26,188 bases of DNA. Source: an uncultured virus (IMG/VR IMGVR_UViG_2049941000_000092). Its lineage: Duplodnaviria > Heunggongvirae > Uroviricota > Caudoviricetes. Numbering within the stretch: position 1 is the first letter of the stretch; the number at the start of each line of letters is the position of its first letter. The notes below the pieces were generated by a model. The model saw only the letters and a list, made by a program, of their open reading frames with translations, had not been told where the DNA came from and did no database searches. This document shows positions 911 to 20,329 of the stretch, in pieces. The stretch lies in IMG/VR virus record IMGVR_UViG_2049941000_000092; one strand, 5' to 3'. The translations under genes and the position numbers were made by a program.

Positions 911-1104
911 TTAATACCTTCAAAGCAAGTATCAGTTAATGATTTTAAGTTTGTTATTTCTTCCCAGTCTTTTTTAAATCTTTCGGCGGATTCTTTAGAT
1001 GGGAATATTTCTGTATATGTTCCACGCCAGTCTTTATGACCATATTCGTCATCAACACTATAAAATGTAATTGAATATACCCATACTTTTTTAATTGTTG
1101 TCAT
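911..1104 (-). CDS. Hypothetical protein, truncated by gap (MTTIKKVWVY...)
   Basis: Part of ORF 448..1140; start overlaps the end of the upstream gene. Confidence 0.55.
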
Positions 1105-1515
1105 GATCAATTCGTTTATACATTCCTTCTGGTAGTTCAAGAGCCAGACCGTTTTTGATGAAGTTGTTGTCGTCGAGATGATGCGAATAGATGAAGTTCA
1201 GGTATTCGCGGAACCGTTCTTTGTTGATGCAAGTAATTGTGGTTCCGTCGTAGTCATTATGGGACCATTTTTAGTGCCCGTTTGTCANNNNNNNNNNTAT
1301 TCTTCTTCAGTCATGGAAGACATTGGACGGAGATATGGCTTGACATCATCAATGCCGAATACAGGACCAACGTCTTTCAGAAAAATCAACGCTATTGTCC
1401 CGATGTTTATTGATGATATGGTACTAATATATTTGTCCGCCGCATTAACTTTCACCCCATAAGGAAACCTTGCACAAAGGTNNNNNNNNNNTAGTTCTTT
1501 ATTTTCTTGTGTCAT
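1091..1515 (-). CDS. Hypothetical phage protein (LCARFPYGV...KPYLRPMSSMTEEE...HHLDDNNFIKNGLALE), gapped
   Basis: ORF track plus manual translation after the gap; one apparent 1-nt homopolymer frameshift near 1270; paralog of 1499..1797. Confidence 0.6.
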
Positions 1516-1797
1516 AAGGATCGTTTTTTAAAGTTACACGAATTGCAAGACCCTGTTCGATTAGATGCCTCCAATCGATATGTTTCGAGAGAACAAATTC
1601 CATATAACCCTCGATATCATGTCTAAACTCTAGATATTCGAGTGTATTTATTTCATCATCTTCAAGCAAGTCCATTTGCTGGANNNNNNNNNNGGCATAT
1701 CATCTTCGGTTGTTTTTCCCTTCCAATGATATGCCACTCCATAAGGAACTCTACTGCATAGGTCTTTATAAACTAGTTCTGTTTGTTCGTATGTCAT
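1499..1797 (-). CDS. Hypothetical phage protein, tandem paralog of 1091..1515 (DLCSRVPYGV...KHIDWRHLIEQGLAI)
   Basis: Manual translation across a 10-N gap; shared N- and C-terminal motifs. Confidence 0.6.
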
Positions 1798-1970
1798 AAT
1801 CTTTTTAATTTATACTCACAATCAAGCCAATCTGCTCTTGCTTCTCTTTTAGCAAAATATTTAGCTTTCTTAGCTCTTTTATGTGATTTGTAAATTCCTA
1901 TACACTGATCATTCTCATAAAGTCCCCAATTATGAGGTTTGTATTGTTCTCTCTTATCTTCTTTAGTCAT
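1794..1970 (-). CDS. Small hypothetical protein (58 aa, MTKEDKREQYKPHNWGLY...)
   Basis: Manual translation; ends in TGA overlapping the next ATG (ATGA). Confidence 0.55.
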   Translation of the reverse strand: MTKEDKREQYKPHNWGLYENDQCIGIYKSHKRAKKAKYFAKREARADWLDCEYKLKRL

Positions 1971-2104
1971 TCCAGGATATTGTTATAAGTAGAGGTGAAA
2001 TCTTACTTTTAGTAACAGTAAAACCCTCCGACTCAAAGAAATTAACTATTTTGGAAACACCTTCTGTTATAACGNNNNNNNNNNGCTAACATAATATTGA
2101 ATTA

Positions 2105-2299
2105 TTAATCTAGTTCTAGGTAAATTCAAGCGAGATGTTTCTGTTCTCCGTCATCCACGATTATTTCTTCAACAGCCACATCGTCATAACCGTCTCTTAT
2201 TCAATCCCTTGCAAGGTTAACGGCAGTCTCTATACTTTCTATGAGATAATCGTTTATTTCTTGATCACCAACTCACACAGAATACGCTACATAGTACAT
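2105..2299 (-). CDS. 64-aa phage protein needing TGA->Trp: MYYVAYSVWVGDQEINDYLIESIETAVNLARDWIRDGYDDVAVEEIIVDDGEQKHLAWIYLELD
   Basis: Starts 2 nt after the upstream TAA with AAGGAG at 2310-2305; in-frame TGA at 2275-2273, 2203-2201, 2128-2126; ends TAA; fills an otherwise empty gene slot. Confidence 0.8.
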
Positions 2300-2301
2300 T
2301 T

Positions 2302-2819
2302 TTACTCCTTATTAATACATTTTATAATATAATCAATAAGTGCCTTAGTACCTCCTACGATAAGTCTGTAGATTAAATACATAATTCCACATGGAACTTC
2401 AAGAGGCCATAGAATTATAAGAAGAAAGTNNNNNNNNNNAAATCATCAAGACATGTTATGACATCAATTCCAGTTTTATACTTTGCATACGCATACTTTT
2501 CAGCAGCTTCAGCATCACTAGTATCTCCTCTATTTTCAAGAAATGAATACATAGCTCTGTACGCACNNNNNNNNNNNNNNNNNNNNNNNNNNNNNNNNNN
2601 NNNNNNNNNNNNNNNNNNNNNNNNNNNNNNNNNNNNNNNNNNNNNNNNNNNNNNNNNNNNNNNNNNNNNNNNNNNNNNNNNNNNNNNNNNNNNNNNNNNN
2701 NNNNNNNNNNNNNNNNNNNNNNNNNNNNNNNNNNNCGCAATACATTGATACGTATAGAATGATATTGCACCAATGAAAATATACGCTAAAATACTGAGAA
2801 AAATCCAAAGAAAAAGCAT
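2302..2819 (-). CDS. Membrane protein(s), gap-interrupted; may be more than one gene
   Basis: Hydrophobic N-terminus MLFLWIFLSILAYIFIGAISF and C-terminal LLIILWPLEVPCGIMYLIY...INKE*. Confidence 0.45.
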
Positions 2820-2928
2820 ATGTTTAAAATTTAATATAAAATAATCCCACTGCGACAAATGCAGCAAATAAAAAAATGAATAGAAGCACAAACTTCAGTG
2901 TTTCATCTCTGTCGTTTTGTTCCATAAT

Positions 2929-2963
2929 AAAAAAAATAAGCCCCTACATTTTCATGTAGGGGC
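2929..2963 (-). terminator. Rho-independent terminator downstream of tRNA(UCA)
   Basis: Perfect 10-bp stem GCCCCTACAT-GAAA-ATGTAGGGGC followed by TTATTTTTTT. Confidence 0.85.
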
Positions 2964-2976
2964 AATAATTGTTTAG

Positions 2977-3047
2977 CCGGATTGCAAGGACTCGAACCCT
3001 GACAGGCGGTTTTGAAGACCGCTAGCCTACCATTAACTGACAATCCG
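2977..3047 (-). tRNA. Opal-suppressor tRNA, anticodon UCA (Trp-like)
   Basis: Cloverleaf: acceptor CGGATTG/CAATCCG, discriminator G, anticodon arm GCGGT-CTTCAAA-ACCGC, T arm CAGGG-TTCGAGT-CCTTG; short variable loop, so not tRNA-Sec. Confidence 0.9.
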
Positions 3048-3104
3048 AAACATATCTGACTATAAATACATCATAAACATTATTCCCCAAATCGTATATT
3101 TATA

Positions 3105-3135
3105 CAAATATACAAAAAATACATCAGATTTCAAA
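3105..3135 (-). promoter_or_regulatory. Bacteroidota housekeeping-sigma promoter upstream of tRNA(UCA)
   Basis: TTTG (3135-3132), 19-nt spacer, TATATTTG (3112-3105); matches the -33 TTTG / -7 TAnnTTTG consensus. Confidence 0.7.
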
Positions 3136-3136
3136 A

Positions 3137-3718
3137 TTATCCCTCCGAATATTGACTCAAATATGACTCAATATTTCTATCTATCTTCTCCTTTACTTCT
3201 TTCCAAGATACTGGTGTATAATCATTGTTATCTACGCCAACATCATACTGTGTGGGAAAGGTATAAACTAATCTCTTAATGTCTGATCCACTAGATACAG
3301 GACCTGAATGAACGTGCCCGTATAACTGAATGGAATAATCTTTGTGTGTAGGATTTTGATGTGCAAAACACAAATAAGGAAAATGGTTAAGATAGACAGT
3401 TTGTCCATCAACCAAAATTCTTGCTTGCGATACACAATCGTCAAATAACTGTTTCGAACCGGCAGTTAAGTTCTTCCAATCATGGTTTCCTATAACAAGA
3501 ATAATATGCCCATTTAATTGATCTCTGATCTCTTTCCAGAATGGAAATCCACCAAAACCAAAATNNNNNNNNNNAACACTGTTCCAATTTTCGATTAAAG
3601 CCGCATCGTGTTCTTCTATAGAAGAATACGGGCGGTGGCAAAACTCCAAAATATGTCGATGTCCGAAATGTGTGTCAGATGTAAAAAATAACCTATCTCC
3701 GCTATACTTTGTTATCAT
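3137..3718 (-). CDS. Calcineurin-like metallophosphoesterase
   Basis: FTSDTHFGH, GNHD, LNHFP and LYGHVH motifs; likely start MITKY at 3718. Confidence 0.9.
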   Translation of the reverse strand: MITKYSGDRLFFTSDTHFGHRHILEFCHRPYSSIEEHDAALIENWNSVXXXXFGFGGFPFWKEIRDQLNGHIILVIGNHDWKNLTAGSKQLFDDCVSQARILVDGQTVYLNHFPYLCFAHQNPTHKDYSIQLYGHVHSGPVSSGSDIKRLVYTFPTQYDVGVDNNDYTPVSWKEVKEKIDRNIESYLSQYSEG

Positions 3719-3719
3719 A

Positions 3720-4016
3720 CTACAATTCTGCGGGCTCATTACAATAAAGTACTTTATCGCCCTNNNNNNNNNNTTCAATAGATTCTACTACCAATGGTCG
3801 TGGTAGACGAAATTTGTAATCAAACTGGCCGTGGTTATAGAGAATTGTTATACATCTTCTACTGATGTCAAAGACCCAGCCTTTATAAACCACGCCATCA
3901 TCTCTAACCCAAACGTCGTCAAAAATATCTAAATCTTTGATGGTTCTTGGGCTCTTCTTAGTTTCAACTTGCAGGTTACTTGTTAGTAACTTGCGTATAC
4001 ACTTTGTCCACCACAT
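3720..4016 (-). CDS. Hypothetical protein
   Basis: ORF track; abuts the phosphoesterase start. Confidence 0.55.
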   Translation of the reverse strand: MWWTKCIRKLLTSNLQVETKKSPRTIKDLDIFDDVWVRDDGVVYKGWVFDISRRCITILYNHGQFDYKFRLPRPLVVESIEXXXXGDKVLYCNEPAEL

Positions 4017-4746: not shown

Positions 4747-4939
4747 CAACATCTGGATCGGAATTACTTTCGAGCAACTCTCTAGCTTTTTGTTGCTTTT
4801 TTCAATTCTCCCGATGACTCTTTTTATCCAAATGTTTCTGCTCTTTTACCTGTTTCTTTTTGCGGTGGATTTTTTGAGTAACCCTAAAATCGGAATCATC
4901 GCTAAAATGTTCCAATTCATAATCTGGAACTTTAGGCAT
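4747..4939 (-). CDS. Basic hypothetical protein with one in-frame TGA (MPKVPDYELEHF...SHREN[TGA]KKQQKARELLESNSDPDV, then gap)
   Basis: Frame stays open with similar composition for 18 codons after the TGA at 4804-4802. Confidence 0.55.
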
Positions 4940-5092: not shown

Positions 5093-6190
5093 CTAGATTA
5101 TCTTGTTCGGATCGAAAATCTCATCATCGATATCGGTTCTCATACCAATATAATCACAAATGCTATCTTGTTCTGCGACACACACTTCTAACTTGTAAAG
5201 TTGTGTTTCAAGTATATCATAAAGATCTGCCGGATATACAGCTTTAAGTATCTGAAAGATGTTTAATCTTTCATTACCCGAAACATCGTGTGTTTCAGCA
5301 TAGACAAGAATTGCATTAAATACATACATCCAAGTTAGAATCTTTTCAAGATTATAAGAAGGACGTAGTAAGCGAAATTCTACGGTCTTATTGACTCGAT
5401 AACAGATAAGATTTAGTAGATTCACCCAATAATAACGCTGGGGAATATTCCATTTGCGAGCCCGATCAATATCCAATGGATGAGGTTGCTGTAAGCTACC
5501 AAAGAACCGAAGTCCGGTAAAACCTGCATAGAAATCCTCAAAGCGAGTATATGGACTGCCGAGAGCATTACAATAGTCTTTTCCCGAACTCTTATACTGC
5601 GATGTTCTGAAAGTATATTTCGGAACAAGTGCAGCAATGGAACGTTGTACTATACAACAAAGATTAAAAAGCGATAAAATTCGCTTAGGCTCTAATGGAA
5701 AACCGCCGAAATGAATATGAAGTGAACATTCTTTATCAAAACGAGTATATTTACGAAGTGTTTCCAATTGTTGGTAAAGCAGGTTAAAACCTTTATGCCC
5801 CTGTAAAACTACAGTGGAATATTCATTACCGCTAATGGAGCCATCTCGTAGAGGAATCAACCCATCCGCGAAACATATTTCCTCTGGAATGATTCCATTG
5901 GAAGTTTCAAATTCCAAACCGAAACTGTACTTGATAAAATTCTCAATAGGGAATTCAAAATCATAACGTACTTTCTGTCGATCTTTGAATGTTTCCAGAT
6001 TGTTTACNNNNNNNNNNGGTACGCTGAACATTTGTGGCGAGCCGTGCCATAAAAATGTGCACACCTTTACTGGCGTAGTAGTATAACCAAAAATAAAACA
6101 GTCATCAATTTTGTTGACAACAACACTGTGTGCATCACTTACATATATACGTTCACCAGTTACGCAATCGATTGTAGATATACTTGCCAT
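5093..6190 (-). CDS. Putative amidoligase (glutamine-synthetase-like COOH-NH2 ligase), copy 1
   Basis: FGLEFE, DGSI..EY, CSLHIH, RYYWVNL and KTVEFR motifs. Confidence 0.85.
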   Translation of the reverse strand: MASISTIDCVTGERIYVSDAHSVVVNKIDDCFIFGYTTTPVKVCTFLWHGSPQMFSVXXXXVNNLETFKDRQKVRYDFEFPIENFIKYSFGLEFETSNGIIPEEICFADGLIPLRDGSISGNEYSTVVLQGHKGFNLLYQQLETLRKYTRFDKECSLHIHFGGFPLEPKRILSLFNLCCIVQRSIAALVPKYTFRTSQYKSSGKDYCNALGSPYTRFEDFYAGFTGLRFFGSLQQPHPLDIDRARKWNIPQRYYWVNLLNLICYRVNKTVEFRLLRPSYNLEKILTWMYVFNAILVYAETHDVSGNERLNIFQILKAVYPADLYDILETQLYKLEVCVAEQDSICDYIGMRTDIDDEIFDPNKII

Positions 6191-7662
6191 AATGCGTCAT
6201 AATCAGTATTATCTTCGACATTAAATAATGCATCAAACTGTTTACTGGCATCGCCTCCAATAACTCCAGTTTTTCTTCTCACGAATTGTCCATTAGCATA
6301 GATATCAATGCTTGCTTGGAATAAAACCTGTCGATCGCCAGTGAAATTCTCCCATTTGAAAGGTTCTATGGCGTGTAACAAGTGATTATCTTCGAAATAA
6401 ACTGGATCTGCACTCAAATACCGAATGAAATTTTCGTTTTTGGAGAAGAATGGTTCCCAAGAATTAGGACTCTCCGTAAACATTCTTGTTACAAAGTCCC
6501 ACGCATTCTTACTTTTCATTGGAATACCATGATAGAACCAAACTTCCCTAATGGTAACATACTCGGAATTTTTCTCCTTAGGATCAGTAACGACCCTACC
6601 ATAGCCGGTCATACGATAGCCACCGCTCATCGGCCTGGCGTTGTATTCGAAAATATTCTTTCCAGGAAGATGTCTAACATATGCACTTCCCTGAGTATAA
6701 CCAGTTCCTACACTCTGATTAGGGGTTGCAACTTCATCGTCATCCCAGTAACGATTTTCAGATGGAACACCATAGTTATAGCCATAACCATAACTGGTAA
6801 CTGCACATCTTGCCTGAGTTGCCTTAGATCTATCGATTTCCTTTATCATATAGAGCTTGGAATCACGATACTCAATGATTTCATTGGCGGGGAGAATGTA
6901 ATAACGTCCTCCGTCAAGAATTGGAATATAAGAATGAACGGAACTGAAAACCAGCCTTCCATTCTTATAATTCAAAAACAGCGGACGTTCTTCTTCAGCC
7001 GCAGCACTAGTACTGTATTTCTTACTTTCGCCTCGGTATAGGAAAACTCTTGGTCTTCCACTTCTATAATCGACTGCAACAAATGCTGCACCACCCTGAT
7101 ATTCCTTTAATACGTCATATCCGGTATGATACAGTATTTGTGCAAGANNNNNNNNNNNNNNNNNNNNNNNNNNNNNNNNNNNNNNNNNNNNNNNNNNNNN
7201 NNNNNNNNNNNNNNNNNNNNNNNNNNNNNNNNNNNNNNNNNNNNNNNNNNNNNNNNNNNNNNNNTGCGAATCGGACATTCCGAAAACGTTTGTGTTTGGA
7301 ATATATTTCTTCGCAAGTTCTTCATAATTATAAATTGTGCCGTTATGAATAAGTACGAACTTTGTTTCCTCATTCTCCTTGATTATAACGGGCTGCGCTT
7401 TTTCGAGGCTAACTCCACCAGAAGACGCTTTTCTGTCGTGTCCGATGGCAATCTTACACCGTTTCGTTTGACGCAGCAGCTTGCTGCCAGGATAAAATGC
7501 TTCGAACAGAGCCGTTTTTGTAATACCATATTCTACGTTTCCATCGATGAAAATTCCGCATGAATCTCCACCACGTTTGTCATTTGCAACACCTAATACA
7601 CAAAACGTTTTATAGTCAAACGGTGCGTATTCTGTATTAATTATACCCCAAATTCCACACAT
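6160..7662 (-). CDS. Class II (Ntn) glutamine amidotransferase with C-terminal extension, copy 1
   Basis: N-terminal MCGIWG, RGGDSCG, GHDRKAS, HNGTI, SDS. Confidence 0.9.
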   Translation of the reverse strand: MCGIWGIINTEYAPFDYKTFCVLGVANDKRGGDSCGIFIDGNVEYGITKTALFEAFYPGSKLLRQTKRCKIAIGHDRKASSGGVSLEKAQPVIIKENEETKFVLIHNGTIYNYEELAKKYIPNTNVFGMSDSXXXXXXXXXXXXXXXXXXXXXXXXXXXXXXXXXXXXXXXXLAQILYHTGYDVLKEYQGGAAFVAVDYRSGRPRVFLYRGESKKYSTSAAAEEERPLFLNYKNGRLVFSSVHSYIPILDGGRYYILPANEIIEYRDSKLYMIKEIDRSKATQARCAVTSYGYGYNYGVPSENRYWDDDEVATPNQSVGTGYTQGSAYVRHLPGKNIFEYNARPMSGGYRMTGYGRVVTDPKEKNSEYVTIREVWFYHGIPMKSKNAWDFVTRMFTESPNSWEPFFSKNENFIRYLSADPVYFEDNHLLHAIEPFKWENFTGDRQVLFQASIDIYANGQFVRRKTGVIGGDASKQFDALFNVEDNTDYDALWQVYLQSIA

Positions 7663-7665
7663 AAT

Positions 7666-8463
7666 TTACATTATCAGATATTTTTTGATGAGTGTCCTAG
7701 CCAGTTGCTCATCACTATTATTGATGGCCTTGACAACAAGACCAGAATCAGCAAGTGGAGCACCCGTGTTACACGCATCAATAGCGTTCATTAATTGATC
7801 CCAAACGAGACCCATCAATTCGTCATTGGCGTACATTGCTGAGGACAGACAACGGTACTCTAAGCCATATGGCGTCAGCCGGAATGCACCAGCTTTACCA
7901 TATAAGCTACGACGGCGTGTGTCTTTATCGTAGAGAATAGACGGCAGTCCAAGGAACATGTCCATATAACGAATCATTTTCAGAGACGTATCGACATTGT
8001 TGCGGGCATACCCGAGATGGATATGGAAACCGCTGGATCTACCATTTGTTTGTGTGCCCTTAGGCGCAGGATTTTCGGATTCCGTATAAACGTTATAATC
8101 CGGCATACAGCCGAACAATTTTGCCTGATCACTTTGCAGTTGATCAGCGTCAACGACTTCATATGCGGAACACTTAATTCCATAGTCTGGATTAATCTTC
8201 TTAACAAATGCATCAATGTACCGTTTCATGTAATTGATACTGTTAATGAAATCCAGTCGTGATCTCACCGGAGGAATATTGAACTCGGCGAGAATATTGT
8301 CGGTTTCCAACCCGAACCCGTCTGGCATGTCGTCAGCTACATAAGGATTTCCTTTTTCACCAGGAATAAGTCCTACAGAAGATACAACTTTGCCAGTTTT
8401 CGTATTGATGATAAAGAGTTCGGGATCGGAACCAACAGTGATGTTATCGACAAGTATTCTCAT
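7666..8463 (-). CDS. Phage phiEco32-like COOH-NH2 ligase type 2
   Basis: GSDPELF, DNILAEFNIPP, FGCMPDYN, GFHIHLG, RRSLYGKAGAFR, YGLEYR. Confidence 0.9.
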   Translation of the reverse strand: MRILVDNITVGSDPELFIINTKTGKVVSSVGLIPGEKGNPYVADDMPDGFGLETDNILAEFNIPPVRSRLDFINSINYMKRYIDAFVKKINPDYGIKCSAYEVVDADQLQSDQAKLFGCMPDYNVYTESENPAPKGTQTNGRSSGFHIHLGYARNNVDTSLKMIRYMDMFLGLPSILYDKDTRRRSLYGKAGAFRLTPYGLEYRCLSSAMYANDELMGLVWDQLMNAIDACNTGAPLADSGLVVKAINNSDEQLARTLIKKYLIM

Positions 8464-9088
8464 TTATTAGTTCTGCTAAAACTCTAAGTGGATAATTGAG
8501 AAGTTCCTCTTCGTAAACTGTAGGAAGAAATTGGACGGCAATACATTTCGGCTTTTCAGGATTATCATAGACAACAATCTCGGGATTTCCCTTATTATAG
8601 TTGAGATGATAATCGATCTCACCGTTTCTCTCACTATAATATTTGATGTTAGTAGAGTATGCAATAACCCTGTGCTTAGTATACCACGGATACAGTGCTT
8701 GGTGATGTCTTTGAATCTTCGGATAAACAAAAATGCCATCCTTAGTTTCTACAAACAAATCGTGTGAAATGTTCGAAGCATCACGCCATCTGCATTCCTG
8801 AATTAATTTTCCTCCGTTCATCACAGTAAGAAACTGTGCACCTCTGCCAAATCCAATTACCAATTTATCCTTTGGAATATTGTTAAATNNNNNNNNNNCC
8901 ATGTCTGATATGTCACGGCTACCATCATACATTGTGGTAGGTTCGCAACGAGCACCATATAACATGGGATTAACGTCAGGTCCATCAGTAAATATGATAA
9001 CATCGGCAGTGTCCATCTTTTTTACGAGAGTGGCATCAGGAAGAAAGTTCGTATAATTCTTCCCACCTTTTACAACGAAAACATTCAT
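8444..9088 (-). CDS. Class I GATase (peptidase C26-like) paralog lacking catalytic Cys and His
   Basis: FTDGPDVNPMLYG, GFGRGAQFL, HHQ, QFLP. Confidence 0.8.
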   Translation of the reverse strand: MNVFVVKGGKNYTNFLPDATLVKKMDTADVIIFTDGPDVNPMLYGARCEPTTMYDGSRDISDMXXXXFNNIPKDKLVIGFGRGAQFLTVMNGGKLIQECRWRDASNISHDLFVETKDGIFVYPKIQRHHQALYPWYTKHRVIAYSTNIKYYSERNGEIDYHLNYNKGNPEIVVYDNPEKPKCIAVQFLPTVYEEELLNYPLRVLAELINENTCR

Positions 9089-9820
9089 TTATCGTGCTTT
9101 TAGTATGCGATAATTGTTAATATACTGAGGAAGATGCTTTTCGAAAAGTGCGTTTTCCGTAATATACTCAGTTTTATAATCTGGAACTTGATGTACTTTC
9201 AGATTATAGTACTTAGTATAGTCAGGATATAGTTGTCGTGCGTAAGTAATATGTTCTATTCGCTTACGCATTTGATCTATAGTTAAGAACTTACGGCAAA
9301 TTCCAAATACATGATCTCTATCACCTTCAGATTCATAACAAGATGCAACTGCCATAAACAGATTCTGAATATTATCGAATCTAAATTTAGGCAGATGTTG
9401 CATCTTATATGCTTGTGCGAGATAGTAATTCTGAGGAAATTCGTATAATTTCTTAATGCTTTGCACAATAATCGTCGTAACGGCACGAGTTGCCATTATA
9501 TCAAGATGGACGATATAACAAGGATGATTATAATACGATCCGTTTCGTACATTATACTTAAACGGATAAATCTTTGTTAATTGGTGCAAATAGCTAGAAA
9601 CCTGAACTCTAGATAAAAAGCACTGATTGTTATGACGTGCAGTTAGAGGTTGATATGAATCCGTACAAAGTTTTATGGAGATATCAGAATGATACTTTTT
9701 AGATCGATTGGTCANNNNNNNNNNAGCATCACACATAATTCTACCATTTACCCAAATATTTCTACCATCCAGTGTACCACCGAAAACAGTGCAATAATTG
9801 AGAAATCTACTGTACTGCAT
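9089..9820 (-). CDS. Hypothetical protein X (free-standing paralog of the intron-encoded ORF)
   Basis: ORF track; overlaps GATase exon 2 stop; motif-by-motif similarity to 10253..10832. Confidence 0.8.
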   Translation of the reverse strand: MQYSRFLNYCTVFGGTLDGRNIWVNGRIMCDAXXXXTNRSKKYHSDISIKLCTDSYQPLTARHNNQCFLSRVQVSSYLHQLTKIYPFKYNVRNGSYYNHPCYIVHLDIMATRAVTTIIVQSIKKLYEFPQNYYLAQAYKMQHLPKFRFDNIQNLFMAVASCYESEGDRDHVFGICRKFLTIDQMRKRIEHITYARQLYPDYTKYYNLKVHQVPDYKTEYITENALFEKHLPQYINNYRILKAR

Positions 9821-11242
9821 ATTTCAAAATCAGGTCGTTTAACATATCGTGCAATTCGCCATAGTTCATCATCTCAGGATGACCCTGTACACCAAGGCAT
9901 ACAGGCAATCCTTCTTTATGAAAAACAGCTATTTCTGGTTCACGAATAATACGCTCAGGATTAATTTTGTCTCCGTGATAATAAGAACAACGCTTTATGG
10001 TAGACCAATATAGAATATCATAATCACGTTTGTTCAAATTAAACGGATAAATCATTTGATGATGAAGAGAAGTAATTGTAAAGGTTTCTCTGCCGTTAGT
10101 AATTCCATGATTACATCCAGCATGATTATCACAATCTTGAACAAGCAAACCACCATTCAGTACACATAGGAATTGTACATTTTGTTATCGTAGGGGCTCT
10201 TTATCCTCTACTTCTGAACATTCAATTCTGCCCAGTTCGGACTATCTCTTCATTAAAACTTAGTACCTTTTAGAATCTTATAATTTTTGACATATTTCTC
10301 AACACGTTTGTCAAAAGTTTCCAGNNNNNNNNNNNNNNNNNNNNNNNNNNNNNNNNNNNNNNNNNNNNNNNNNNNNNNNNNNNNNNNNNNTAGCGTACTT
10401 CTTTAGACGAAACGCTTCTAGAAGAATCATATTGTACGGAAACTCATAAGCATATCTTAACCAAGTTAAGAGATACCTATGATAGAAATGATTGGCGTCA
10501 ACGTCAAACGTAACTTTAAACGCTGGACACACTCCAACCCCACTACGTACTTCCGGCTCTTCTTCAACATTATAGTTAAATTTGAATATTCTTCTAGCTT
10601 GTTTAATATGATAGATTAATTCTTCTTTTGTTAAAGGACAGAAATTACTCTGATGTTTTTTTGCAACTTTCAGATCCTTAAAAAGATAGATTATATAAGA
10701 TTCTTTTCTGATCGTTTTTCGATTAATAGCGTTTGCAAAACACGCATGTGATCCAAGAGGAACATGAATATCGCCATTTGCTTCGAAATACGAGCAGTAG
10801 CTCATAAAGTTTAGTTTAATTTCATTAGCCATAAAGATCTATGATTTTAATGTGGGGTACTCGTGGAAACATTATCAACTCAAAGAGTCTCAGTTTCTAG
10901 TCTCTGAACTTTCAAGGACATCACTGCCCAAGCTTAGCTGCTGATTAACATCTCAGTCTTCCAGCAATTCACCCCATTTAACGTGAGCTACGACGTTAAC
11001 CCACGACATGTACCAAATGCCAACTGATCGGGTCTCATCTTTCGGAAAGCGAGAACTTCCTGCTCGTCTCTCCTTGGACTACTATAGACAGTTGGGTCTT
11101 TAGCACAACCATATAAGGAGGGGCTTACATCAGCCCCTCCTGTGAATAATACGATTTGTGCGTCTTCTATGTTGTGAACAAACTCGACGTCTTTGATCCA
11201 GTTAGCATAATCCCAACTTGGACCAACCACATAAATCTTCAT
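9807..11242 (-). CDS. Class I glutamine amidotransferase / gamma-glutamyl hydrolase (C26-like), spliced: exon 1 11242-10999, exon 2 10177-9807, 204 aa
   Basis: Joining restores GTCRG-L-QFLCVLNGG; FTGGADVSPSLYG, HHQM and QGHPE complete the Cys-His-Glu triad. Confidence 0.9.
10178..10998 (-). mobile_element. Group I intron (IA-like, extra P7 insert) in the class I GATase
   Basis: P1 exon CGTGGGT/IGS GCTCACG with U.G; P GAATTGCTGGAA, Q AATCAGCAGC, R GTTCAGAGACTA, S AAGAGATAGTCC; P3 TGGGGT/ACCCCA; P8 CATTAAAAT/GTTTTAATG; terminal G at 10178. Confidence 0.92.
10253..10832 (-). CDS. Intron P8-encoded protein, paralog of 9089..9820, no recognisable endonuclease motif
   Basis: ORF track N-terminal part; post-gap frame LETFDKRVEKYVKNYKILKGTKF* with its stop inside the P8 3' strand. 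Confidence 0.8.
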
Positions 11243-11288: not shown

Positions 11289-12365
11289 TTATTCAGCAGA
11301 TTCAGGGGTTTCGACGGGAGCAACAGCCGGTGCAGCTGCAGGAGCAGCAGCCGGAGCAGCGGCGACAGGGGCGGCGAGACCTCCGAAGAGGTTACCGAAG
11401 GCGTTCTGGCCGCTGAGGGCGGAGTACATGAGAAGGTCCTTGATGTCGAACTTGTCGCCACCAGCGAGGGCCATCATCATCATCGGATTGGCCTGAAGGG
11501 CACCGCCGTTCTGGGACAGCAGCATCAGGGGAAGCAGGCTGTCGTTGTCCTTCTTGTCGGAGAGGGCAAGAAGCATCAGCGGATTCATCTGGCCGCCGAG
11601 GTTACCAGCGAGGGAAACCACGACACGGACAGTGGTCTGGCCGAGGAAGAAGTCCTTGATCGGATACACGTTGGAACCAGCACCGGTATAACCAACGACA
11701 GTGATGCGACCTTCCTTGATGGCCTTCACCTTCGCGTAGCTCTTCTCACGGGCGATGATATCGCCAACCTTCAGCTGCTCGACAGGCTTCGGAATGGTGT
11801 AAGCCGGGAGGTTGATCACCATCTCGTCCGGATAGGACGTGAGGTGGAAGTTCTCGTCGATGGTTACGTAACCGTTAGAGGTTGCAACACAAATGTTACC
11901 GTCCATAGCAATACGGACATCCTTTGCCTCGGTGGGGATCAGGTTGGCTTTGAGGCGCTCGCCAAAATTCTTGATGGAGTTCATACTCGTTGTTTTAGGG
12001 GTTGAGGCAGATTCGGAATTGAGAAGGGGCCGAGCCTCACGGCACCACGTCTCAAATTTGATACGATTGGCGACGCTCGTGATGTTAACTTTCTTAACAT
12101 CGTAGTTACGAGCGAGATCGTCGATGTAAGCGCGGTCTTCACCGGACAGGTCCTCAATGGACTTATCGAAGGTCCGGATAACGAAGATGCTATTTCCCTT
12201 CTTAGTGATGAGGTTGTCACCAGCCTTCACAGAAGCGAGATAGTCGTTAAGACCACATTCAGCGATGCGGAACTTGCAATTCTTTTTCGCGAATGCAACA
12301 ACGTCCGCAAGAGTCTTCGGAGTAAATCCGAGATTCGAAGTGTAAACAATTAATTTGTTACCCAT
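11289..12365 (-). CDS. Hypothetical phage protein with Met-rich NPLMLLAL-type repeats and an Ala/Pro tail
   Basis: 358-aa ORF with strongly C-ending codons, unlike its neighbours. Confidence 0.85.
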   Translation of the reverse strand: MGNKLIVYTSNLGFTPKTLADVVAFAKKNCKFRIAECGLNDYLASVKAGDNLITKKGNSIFVIRTFDKSIEDLSGEDRAYIDDLARNYDVKKVNITSVANRIKFETWCREARPLLNSESASTPKTTSMNSIKNFGERLKANLIPTEAKDVRIAMDGNICVATSNGYVTIDENFHLTSYPDEMVINLPAYTIPKPVEQLKVGDIIAREKSYAKVKAIKEGRITVVGYTGAGSNVYPIKDFFLGQTTVRVVVSLAGNLGGQMNPLMLLALSDKKDNDSLLPLMLLSQNGGALQANPMMMMALAGGDKFDIKDLLMYSALSGQNAFGNLFGGLAAPVAAAPAAAPAAAPAVAPVETPESAE

Positions 12366-12471: not shown

Positions 12472-12546
12472 TGGAGCCGGATGAGAATTCTGAGATCTCG
12501 ACCTGAGGCTTACAAAGCCCCCGCTCTGCCGCTGAGCTAATCCGGC
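12472..12546 (-). tRNA. tRNA-Thr(UGU) with encoded CCA and a non-canonical T loop
   Basis: Acceptor GCCGGAT/ATCCGGC; anticodon arm GGGGC-TTTGTAA-GCCTC; T arm GAGATCTCAGAATTCTC. Confidence 0.8.
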
Positions 12547-15768: not shown

Positions 15769-15841
15769 TGGTACCTACCAGGTTTGAACTAGTGACGCTC
15801 GGCTCTTCAGGCCGACGCTCTACCAACTGAGCTATTGTCGC
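15769..15841 (-). tRNA. tRNA-Phe(GAA); 5' acceptor strand does not pair (pseudogene or assembly chimera)
   Basis: D, anticodon (TCGGC-CTGAAGA-GCCGA) and T arms intact; 3' AGGTACC faces GCGACAA. Confidence 0.7.
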
Positions 15842-16157: not shown

Positions 16158-16812
16158 AAGGCCCCAAGAGCAGGACTGTTTACCTGCAACTATCCATACT
16201 TTCCACCTAATAGGCAGCCTGGTGTTTTAATTATTACTATCTTGGGATACTGTTAGAGTTTCACCTCGGTTTATTAAAGTGATTAACTCTTCAGGTGTGA
16301 CATCAATTTCCTCCCAATAATATCCAAGAGGCTCGCACTCAACTGTGAGGGGAGGCACTTCTCTTTTTATTCGTATTTTCATACTAATATTAAGTGTTGC
16401 GTTTCTTGAATTTCACTGTTTGAATATCTGTTCGGTGTAACCGGATTTTTTGAATCTCTGAATGGTGATGTCCTCCATTTGGACCCAATACCGGACGAAC
16501 AGTTTCGTAAACAATGTTAACAGCATCGTTATTGAACTCGAACAAAATAAACCTATCTGGNNNNNNNNNNNNNNNNNNNNNNNNNNNNNNNNNNNNNNNN
16601 NNNNNNNNNNNNNNNNNNNNNNNNNNNNNNNNNNNNNNNNNNNNNNNNNNNNNNNNNNNNNNNNNCCACCAATTTTTTTAAGAATAAAATTGGAAACTAA
16701 AAAATACGATTTTTGCAGCTTTACTCTTGGAAGTGGAGGGAAATCGAACCGCTCTTTCATCGTGAGCATCTTCCATCAATGCTTTCCTCCCAAGAACTGC
16801 GTAGCTATTAAC

Positions 16813-18388
16813 CTAAATGATGCTGTCGTAACCGAAGAAATCGTTCTCAATTTCAGTTGTTGCACCAATCATATCGTTGTACAACGATTTTTGTTGAGCA
16901 GTAGTCCAGTATTGCTTATAATACTCTTCTTCAAGCATATCGGCAACCTCGCTTGGATAAATATGCCGATATATCTCGATTAGACTATCACAAGGATTTC
17001 CATCTTGTTCTGCATATAACATGATGGCGTTGAATGTATAAATCCAGAATAGAATTCTTTCCAAATTATACGTAGGTCTAAGAAACCTAAACTCAACGGT
17101 TTTACTAGACTTATAACAGAGAAGATTAATAAGATTCAACCAGTAATAGCGAGTTGCAATATTCCACTTGTGTCCGCGATTTTTATCGTTAGGATGAGGA
17201 ACTGTTAAATCGCCATTATATTCTAAACCGACTAAATTGCGATATAGAACTGTAAAACTGGGATACTTATTCAGTTTGTTACAGTAATCCTTCCCACTTT
17301 GCTTATACTTAGATGTATAGAAAGTGTATAACGGAAGAATTGCAGACAAATNNNNNNNNNNNNNNNNNNNNNNNNNNNNNNNNNNNNNNNNNNNNNNNNN
17401 NNNNNNNNNNNNNNNNNNNNNNNNNNNNNNNNNNNNGCAGACAAATCTGATTCGAGTCTAAGACAGACAAGATACAATTGATAAATCTTTTGGGGATCCA
17501 ATGGGTATCCACCAAAATGCATGTGAAGTGAACACTCTTTATTAAAATGAGTGTACTTGCGAAGTGTTTGTAACTGCTGATACAGTAGTGACAACCCTTC
17601 ATTTCCGCGCATGACTACAGTAGAGTATTCATTACCGGAAATTGAACCATCACGTAATGGAATCAATCCGTCTCGAAAACACAGTTCCTCGGGAATAATT
17701 CCTACACACGTTTCAAATTCAATACCAAATGTGTACTTAAGATATTTAGCCAGAGGGAATTCGTGACTTACGATAACAGATTGTTTTCCCGAAAAAAGTC
17801 TAAAATTCTCTGCAGCTTCATATTTCTTCTCAAACCTATAAGGAAATCCGGATTTAAGCATATATTTCAGCTCAATGAAATCCGATTTAGTTCCCCGTAG
17901 ATAAAGAACGTACTTATTGTCTTGAGAACTCCAGAAGTATTTTCCCTCGAATCCCTGAGGTGCGATACGAGTAGTATACCTCTTACCATTATCAAGAACA
18001 ATTACAACTCGCTCTTCTCCCCTTTTGACAAAACCGTTAATGAAAACACCATTATAGTAGTCAATAGCANNNNNNNNNNCGACATTGCATTGTCCATTAG
18101 CAACGCTACTAATGGCAAATGCTTCTTCAGGTTGCCCAATAAGTCCGAACTTTTCAGTTACGAACTTAATCTCACCTAAAGTAGTAGCAAGTGCTTCATA
18201 CCTTTGCTTGGCGAGATTGGCAAGATGATTCGCACTAGTCGAAGTAATGCCATCGGGGCCAAAGAATGACTCGCTAATAGGAAGATAGTTAATCATTGTT
18301 GTGCTTTTTAAAAAACATAAACGCAATTCTTGGAGGAACACCACACCACNNNNNNNNNNAAAGAGTGTATTGCTTTAACTGCTTCCAT
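16813..18388 (-). CDS. Putative amidoligase, copy 2 (start MEAVKAIHS at 18388; interrupted by gaps and a misplaced contig 18080-18349)
   Basis: FGIEFE, DGLIPLRDGSISGNEYSTVV (identical to copy 1), CSLHMH, RYYWLNL, KTVEFR; the gap at 17352-17436 is flanked by a duplicated gcagacaaat, so it is an overlap. Confidence 0.8.
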
Positions 18389-20209: not shown

Positions 20210-20329
20210 ATTATGCAGCAACAGTAATCANNNNNNNNNNTGTTCTTCGGATGGGTACATTAAATTAAATAATTCACAGGTCTCAGACCAAAAACAATCA
20301 TAACAATGTTCCATAATATTGTCATCTTG

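Follow-up and report, generated by a model that had tools for sequence, protein, structure and literature searches.

The question raised by this locus is whether a short minus-strand frame with three internal TGA codons is a true gene in which TGA is read as Trp and, if so, whether this reading is restricted to part of the genes of the phage. The locus was found in a stretch of 26,188 nucleotides from an uncultured virus of the Caudoviricetes (IMG/VR record IMGVR_UViG_2049941000_000092), which was analysed at its full length and is hereafter named the window. The analyses described below make it very probable that the window belongs to a cattle-gut (rumen-type) phage lineage, which reads TGA as Trp in some of its genes and carries its own tRNA with anticodon UCA, tRNA(UCA).

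Identification of the TGA-containing frame

The frame under study (hereafter named the focal gene) extends on the minus strand from an ATG (2299-2297) to a TAA (2107-2105) and has 64 sense codons, the stop codon being included in the span 2105..2299. Three TGA are present in frame (codons 9, 33 and 58) and TGG is absent. The preceding frame is closed by a TAA (2304-2302) and the ATG of the focal gene follows after 2 nt, in agreement with an earlier description of the locus made by inspection of the letters (the sequence-only reading), which had given the same limits, the TAA end, the three TGA and the lack of TGG. One strong ribosome-binding site, AAGGAG, is located at 2305..2310 (minus strand), 5 nt before the ATG. 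Upstream lies a hydrophobic open frame (2302..2429, minus strand), the start of which is masked by an N run. TGAs also occur at the start of 2302-2454 and of 2415-2906; they stand behind N runs and are not assignable.

The focal gene is not listed under table 11 and is listed under table 4, with three codons read differently; that it is missed by the ORF track had been noticed before. The table-4 ORF list of the window also includes many spurious TGA-containing frames that overlap better genes, and an open frame of the size of the focal gene is at chance level under this table in the AT-rich window. Since a table-4 frame of such length is not unusual here, the case for the focal gene rests on homology and variation.

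The focal gene encodes a member of a family of small phage proteins

A phmmer scan of 1.84 billion representative proteins with the focal protein as query retrieved 101 proteins at E<=1e-3, the best of them with E=2e-11 and 1.4e-10; the best relative is only 46-60% identical. Nineteen hits longer than 125 aa, mostly multi-stretch matches in long proteins, were left out of the column counts, although two of the nineteen, with 141 and 162 aa, could be genuine fusions. The query was aligned with 82 short relatives (including P0002). The family core, taken from the alignment of 65 of the 83 sequences, is YTVWVGGxEVNDYxL..A..LA..W...GYDDVxIE, with V8, W9, V10, G11, G12, E14, N16, A26, A30, G37, Y38, D40 and V41 near-invariant in VWVGG...GYDDV proteins. 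The window protein fits this pattern except for a D at position 12, and it has both the conserved core motif and the length (about 45-70 aa) that define the family. A resemblance to a small phage family with VWVG...NDY...GYDDV had been pointed out by the sequence-only reading; such a family does exist and was found in the protein-library search as well as in IMG/VR.

The three TGA codons were then compared with the corresponding columns of the 82 relatives, in which Trp had been anticipated. This was borne out at codon 9 (2273..2275, minus strand), where Trp is present in 79 relatives and Phe in 3, and also at codon 58 (2126..2128, minus strand), the weakest of the three columns, which is aligned in only 15 of the 82 relatives (Trp in 13, Tyr in 2). 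The column of codon 33 (2201..2203, minus strand) is mostly Trp or Tyr (Trp 43, Tyr 37, Cys 1, Phe 1). As judged from this alignment, the three TGAs of the focal gene stand where the relatives have Trp. It is the homology, together with the match between TGA and Trp columns, that raises the frame above the chance level, and by this measure the focal gene is genuine and conserved, its product belonging to a family of small phage proteins that is widespread.

In IMG/VR, 291 relatives of the VWVGG...GYDDV family were confirmed, and 80 homologue loci were kept for comparison. None of the 80 has a TGA in the core. At column 33 these loci have TGG-encoded Trp (47), Tyr (27), Phe (5) or Leu (1); the retrieval pattern presumed a TGG at column 9, and therefore column 9 is biased and column 33 unbiased in this set. 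The first stop after the core is a TGA in 49 of these 80 standard-code loci. With no core TGA in any of them, the window copy is the odd one, and it is the only VWVGG...GYDDV copy seen with TGA for Trp in comparison with the 80 IMG/VR loci.

Searches related to the structure and function of the focal protein

The fold predicted for the focal protein comprises a strand, a short strand, a helix and two further strands, with a mean pLDDT of 91.7, and according to this model it is a small alpha/beta protein. Foldseek with the model gave no match at E<=0.001 against PDB, the best one being a Rubisco small-subunit-like domain (E=0.1, TM 0.52). Against BFVD no match at E<=0.001 was obtained either, and only uncharacterised phage proteins were returned. 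Pfam has no family for the focal protein, PHROG gave only phrog_8929 (E=0.032), and the Atlas gave only hypothetical viral clusters, below 0.9. Phage GenBank records provided no match by tblastn with the focal protein or with the 326-aa protein, nor by blastn with the region 1700-3100. Neither the focal protein as a single query nor the 326-aa protein retrieved a confirmed relative from IMG/VR, and an exact 40-mer sought in viral and metagenome contigs had no match.

The TGA codons are maintained in other samples

The stretch occurs in 18 sequencing runs from 10 studies, which are bovine and other animal gut metagenomes. Contigs of four runs belonging to four studies (X5, X9, X10 and X16) were aligned to positions 2085-2429. 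Twelve variable sites were observed in this region, none of which falls in the TGA codons, and these codons are covered by the contigs. The codon 9 TGA is unchanged in contigs of X5, X9, X10 and X16, the codon 33 TGA in X5 and in two X10 contigs, and the codon 58 TGA in X5 and X10. Independent data from other studies therefore show TGA at these positions and not TGG. Seven synonymous third-position variants (codons 4, 5, 28, 41, 42, 48 and 50) and three non-synonymous ones (two in codon 22 and one in codon 23) were found inside the focal gene, and the upstream frame at 2302..2429 has two conservative changes in other strains (V to I and L to I). The X9 contig, which comes from an RNA library, spans 2221-2429; RNA libraries can contain DNA, and for this reason it does not show transcription. 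The variation seen in these contigs is what a translated gene shows when purifying selection acts on it, and the TGAs of the focal gene are kept.

These data bear directly on the possibility that the frame is a decaying pseudogene or a non-coding stretch and that the TGAs are knock-outs, as the absence of a table-11 ORF might indicate. In that case it would have to be accepted that stops had arisen at each of the three Trp codons and nowhere else in the frame, that a strong ribosome-binding site had remained in place, that synonymous sites outnumber non-synonymous ones by 7 to 3 with the TGAs kept in four studies, and that the product still gives a confident structure model (pLDDT 91.7). We find this explanation hardly credible.

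A tRNA with anticodon UCA is encoded upstream of the focal gene

The suppressor tRNA that the sequence-only reading had presumed is present in the window. It is located at 2977..3047 on the minus strand, 678 nt upstream of the focal gene and on the same strand, and was detected by ARAGORN and by Rfam (tRNA, 52.9 bits). This putative opal suppressor has the anticodon UCA on a Trp-type body; it is 71 nt long and forms an ordinary cloverleaf in which every pair is standard, and its variable loop has 4 nt. When it was compared by blastn with phage records (n=28), the matches were 17 tRNA-Trp, 3 tRNA-Arg and 8 with no annotation or unannotated. Altogether 10 tRNA genes were detected in the window by ARAGORN and 12 by Rfam, all of them on the minus strand, and no tRNA-Trp(CCA) is found among those detected by either program. 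Two tRNAs are missed by ARAGORN and found by Rfam, one at 12475-12546 (minus strand; anticodon UGU, odd T arm) and a partial one at 15777-15834 (minus strand), which is beside an N run.

ARAGORN labels the tRNA(UCA) as 'SeC', a label that reflects the anticodon only and that is the point in favour of TGA being read as selenocysteine; a reading as glycine (table 25) belongs to the same type of explanation. A tRNA-Sec has about 90 nt and a long extra arm, in contrast with the 71 nt, 4-nt variable loop and ordinary cloverleaf found here. The closest tRNAs are tRNA-Trp, the columns of the 82 relatives are occupied by Trp, Tyr or Phe (with a single Cys, at column 33), and no Gly occurs at columns 9, 33 or 58 in these relatives. 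Practically no weight can be given to either of the two readings.

One terminator-like hairpin (10 pairs followed by a T run; 2940..2963, minus strand) is located directly 3' of the tRNA(UCA), and three terminator-like sites are present in the tRNA region, versus 0.4 expected. Ahead of the tRNA(UCA) there is a weak promoter-like site (TTGAAA-16 nt-TATATT; 3107..3134, minus strand). Promoter-like sites are, however, as frequent as in shuffled sequences (6 vs 5.7), and the 3107..3134 site is not conserved in the relatives described in the next section.

Conservation of the tRNA(UCA) and distribution of TGA in related rumen contigs

The phosphoesterase gene at 3137-3778, which adjoins the tRNA(UCA), found 37 related metagenome loci, and the closest of these, with 64-73% identity, have several window genes in common. 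A syntenic tRNA(UCA) is present downstream of the phosphoesterase in L084, L089, L090 and L097, as in the window. The tRNAs of the relatives have the same anticodon loop (CUUCAAA) and a G discriminator, and the substitutions in their acceptor and anticodon stems are compensatory. No more than about 10 nt separate the tRNA from a terminator-like hairpin downstream of it in L084, L089 and L097. The tRNA(UCA) is the end of a block of TGG-only genes terminated by TAA or TAG, which is closed by the hairpin in 4/4 lineages, and TGA-bearing genes stand directly behind the tRNA(UCA) in the window and in three relatives. In L089 (1196-2783) and in L090 the phosphoesterase is split by a LAGLIDADG-type endonuclease (phrog_4645, E=1.7e-42), which itself carries one in-frame TGA.

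Internal TGA codons were counted in ATG frames of at least 60 aa in the contigs L081, L084, L089 and L097, which are unmasked. They were present in 1 of 11 genes of L081, 2 of 10 of L084, 8 of 18 of L089 and 8 of 23 of L097, that is, in 19 of the 62 genes of the four contigs, and only in 2 of the 62 are they confined to the last ten codons. The DNA polymerase of L097 matches phrog_1252 over residues 4-622 (E=6e-148) across 9 TGA, and that of L089 has 7 TGA. The helicase of the relatives has 9 TGA and no TGG. In-frame TGA also occurs in an HNH endonuclease and, as mentioned, in the LAGLIDADG-type endonuclease, and GroEL, a lipoprotein and a dehydrogenase are free of TGA. As read from these alignments, the DNA polymerase, helicase and RNase H of the relatives are full-length genes interrupted by TGA only. 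The RNase H (phrog_531) has 5 TGA and 1 TGG in L097 (11459-11929) versus no TGA and 4 TGG in L089 (6875-7432), and this difference in TGA counts indicates that the recoding state of the gene changes between relatives. One gene of L084 that uses only TGG is closed at 1576-1581 by TGA with TAA immediately after it, in overlap with the start of the following gene; with these two stops in tandem, translation would end under either code.

The genes downstream of the tRNA(UCA) differ between the window and its relatives, so synteny breaks after the tRNA, and no homologue of the focal gene was found in the parts of the relatives examined. Both observations would be expected if the focal gene, perhaps with the tRNA, had been recently imported from a fully TGA-recoded phage or from a code-4 organism, in which case its TGAs would reflect the code of the donor and not regulation in the window phage. 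We regard such an import as improbable. The composition of the focal gene (GC 0.379, GC3 0.292) is typical of the window, there is no close donor (the best relative being 46-60% identical), and 80 of the 80 homologue loci examined use TGG. In addition, the position of the tRNA is conserved across the lineage, and other genes of the lineage carry TGA. An origin of the gene from a fully recoded relative had been put forward as the alternative in the sequence-only reading, and it receives no support from the window-typical composition or from the distance to the best relative.

Use of TGA and stop codons across the window

For the counts of stop codons and TGG, minus-strand table-11 ORFs of the window were selected greedily; 29 of them end in TAA, 12 in TAG and 10 in TGA. 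The 41 ORFs ending in TAA or TAG contain 68 TGG, which is in line with the earlier remark on the presence of TGG and on TAA or TAG ends in the long genes. The focal gene (3 TGA, 0 TGG) differs from these ORFs (0 TGA, 68 TGG) with a Fisher p=1.7e-5. The use of TGA is also uneven among the genes of L089 and of L097 (permutation p<=5e-5 in each), and the gene selectivity proposed for the recoding thus holds both in the window and in the relatives, where 19 of 62 genes are affected.

Among the 10 ends at TGA, two overlap tRNAs, one is the probable sense TGA of the MPKV gene (see below), three are behind N runs and four (1794-1970, 16413, 22055 and 24766) are unexplained. The window contains 34 N runs. 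At the 10311 end, the visible part has an identical counterpart in the database that goes on in another frame and is terminated by TAA or TAG. The database protein matching the visible part of the ORF that starts at 10832 crosses an N run, emerges in another frame and has far more residues there than the run has room for. The N runs thus preserve neither length nor frame, and ORF ends just behind them are unreliable; the TGA ends at 10311, 1285, 17271 and near 20226, all of them just behind N runs, were not counted as stops. Of the unexplained ends, 1794-1970 is the best candidate for a gene that still terminates at TGA. Its end overlaps the following start as ATGA, and its database form, of 58 aa, has no other relatives; if this TGA were a true stop, its suppression would add 7 residues. 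A single TGA separates the ORF at 16413-16769 from 16227-16382, which is in the same frame. Few if any genes of the window are therefore terminated by TGA, and in the relatives only 2 of 62 genes have a TGA solely in their tail, versus 49 of 80 standard-code homologue loci with TGA as the first stop after the core.

A second window gene, MPKV (4748..4939, minus strand, with its end masked by an N run), probably has a sense TGA at codon 46 (4802-4804). The column of this TGA is invariant in 5/5 lineages, and the frame behind it is open and acidic.

The near lack of TGA as a terminator would also be found if the host itself read TGA as Trp (table 4), in which case the phage would simply mirror its host and nothing would be selective. 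This is very improbable in view of the fact that about two thirds of the genes are TGA-free in a genome of 30-38% GC, that many TGG are kept (68 in the window, 24 in L089 and 37 in L097) and that TGA use is so strongly uneven among genes. Furthermore, the phage carries its own tRNA(UCA), and published code-matched phages have in-frame TGA in about 90% of their genes (accessible text of 10.1101/2021.08.26.457843). From the uneven TGA use, and from nothing else, we infer that the host uses the standard code.

Other features of the window were recorded during the gene survey. The cluster at 5093-9088 (minus strand) encodes an amidoligase, a class-II glutamine amidotransferase, a phiEco32-type COOH-NH2 ligase and a peptidase C26, all of them TGA-free. 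At 9807-11242 (minus strand) a glutamine amidotransferase (phrog_7218) is split, 10988-11242 corresponding to profile positions 2-89 and 9807-10148 to positions 100-198. The ORF starting at 10832 sits between the two halves; it is unrelated to them, has 260 aa in its database form and no family match, and the arrangement looks like an intron or a mobile insertion. At 16813-18344 (minus strand) an amidoligase-like gene is broken up into the ORFs 17271-18344 and 16813-17349, of which the second matches phrog_2443; the frame changes inside an N run, and the two ORFs are probably one gene. Two paralogous small genes at 1094-1797 (minus strand), with N-terminal LCxRxPYGV and C-terminal GLA[IL], each change frame where a run of 10 N interrupts them, 1648-1797 being continued by 1499-1675 and 1285-1515 by 1094-1270. 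Finally, the 358-aa gene at 11289-12365 (minus strand) has a GC of 0.53 and a GC3 of 0.64 in a window of 0.38 GC, and an Ala/Pro-rich tail. No match was found for it in Pfam or PHROG, and relatives with 30-35% identity are present in L081 and L097.

Proposed model for the partial recoding

Each of the alternative explanations fits the data worse than partial TGA-to-Trp recoding. A gene-selective recoding that would depend on the phage suppressor tRNA is supported by the genomic comparisons described above. According to this model, the Trp-tRNA synthetase of the host would charge the tRNA(UCA), which would then compete with release factor 2 at TGA, and full-length protein would be obtained from the TGA-bearing genes only after the tRNA(UCA) had been made. 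In an AT-rich genome, TGG would drift to TGA in those genes in which expression after tRNA production is tolerated, and genes that need to be translated by the naive host would keep TGG and avoid TGA, also as a stop. The position of the tRNA(UCA), at the end of the TGG-only block and directly ahead of TGA-bearing genes, fits a timing switch and does not prove timing, and an AT-biased drift from TGG to TGA in tolerant genes would lead to the same arrangement even if it served no regulation.

A more specific proposal is that the code switch is a compact, hard-wired cassette and that the recoding is a fast-evolving, gene-by-gene dependency on the phage tRNA; this we put forward tentatively, as a possibility with the balance against it. 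The recoded set seen here is made up of genes for replication, of selfish endonucleases and of small accessory genes, and not of lysis genes, in a window and examined parts of relatives that contain no structural or lysis genes. If the cassette proposal were true, accessory and selfish genes could stay silent in cells or co-infecting phages without the tRNA, and the recoding would not act only as a lysis timer.

In practical terms, true genes of this phage lineage are overlooked when genes are called with the standard code, and the annotation of rumen phages needs a gene-by-gene check for TGA as Trp. The focal gene, with three TGAs in 64 codons and near the tRNA(UCA), offers a small and well-conserved test gene for suppression.

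Comparison with known recoded systems

In table-4 organisms such as Mycoplasma and Spiroplasma, a tRNA-Trp(UCA) reads TGA as Trp throughout the genome and TGA is more frequent than TGG. The window resembles them in that TGA would be read as Trp by means of a tRNA with anticodon UCA; unlike in these organisms, a minority of genes is affected and the decoder is viral. The classical opal-suppressor tRNA-Trp of E. coli has a Trp-type body and competes with release factor 2 for UGA. The Trp-type body and the predicted UGA reading are common to both systems, whereas the tRNA of the window has UCA as the anticodon itself and is encoded by a conserved gene of the phage.

The nearest parallels are found in phages. 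The accessible text of the report on recoded gut phages (10.1101/2021.08.26.457843) describes the TGA-recoded Jade, Sapphire and Agate phages, some of them from cattle samples, with suppressor tRNAs, as well as some crAss-like phages with TGA-to-Trp (code 4) recoding. According to the same text, in-frame stops occur in 26-71% of the genes of partially recoded phages, replication genes are variably recoded, structural and lysis genes are stressed, and a model is proposed in which the standard code is switched to the alternative one during infection (10.1101/2021.08.26.457843). A 2026 survey of jumbo phages, which includes rumen samples, also reports recoding and suppressor tRNAs in its accessible part (PMC13037316). 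Since partial recoding, suppressor tRNAs and TGA-recoded cattle phages have been published to this extent, the present case is of a known kind, and what is known of phage recoding is left unchanged by it. What is added is a lineage whose dependence on the suppressor tRNA would include genes for replication and small accessory genes, and not only late genes.

As far as those phages are described there, the likeness to Jade, Sapphire and Agate comprises a phage tRNA that reads TGA, TGA at Trp positions, an origin in the cattle gut and in-frame TGA in only part of the genes, and it extends to mobile endonuclease genes that are also recoded. The difference concerns the genes involved: the emphasis in the accessible text of Borges et al. 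is on structural and lysis genes, whereas the TGA-rich genes seen here are replication and small accessory genes.
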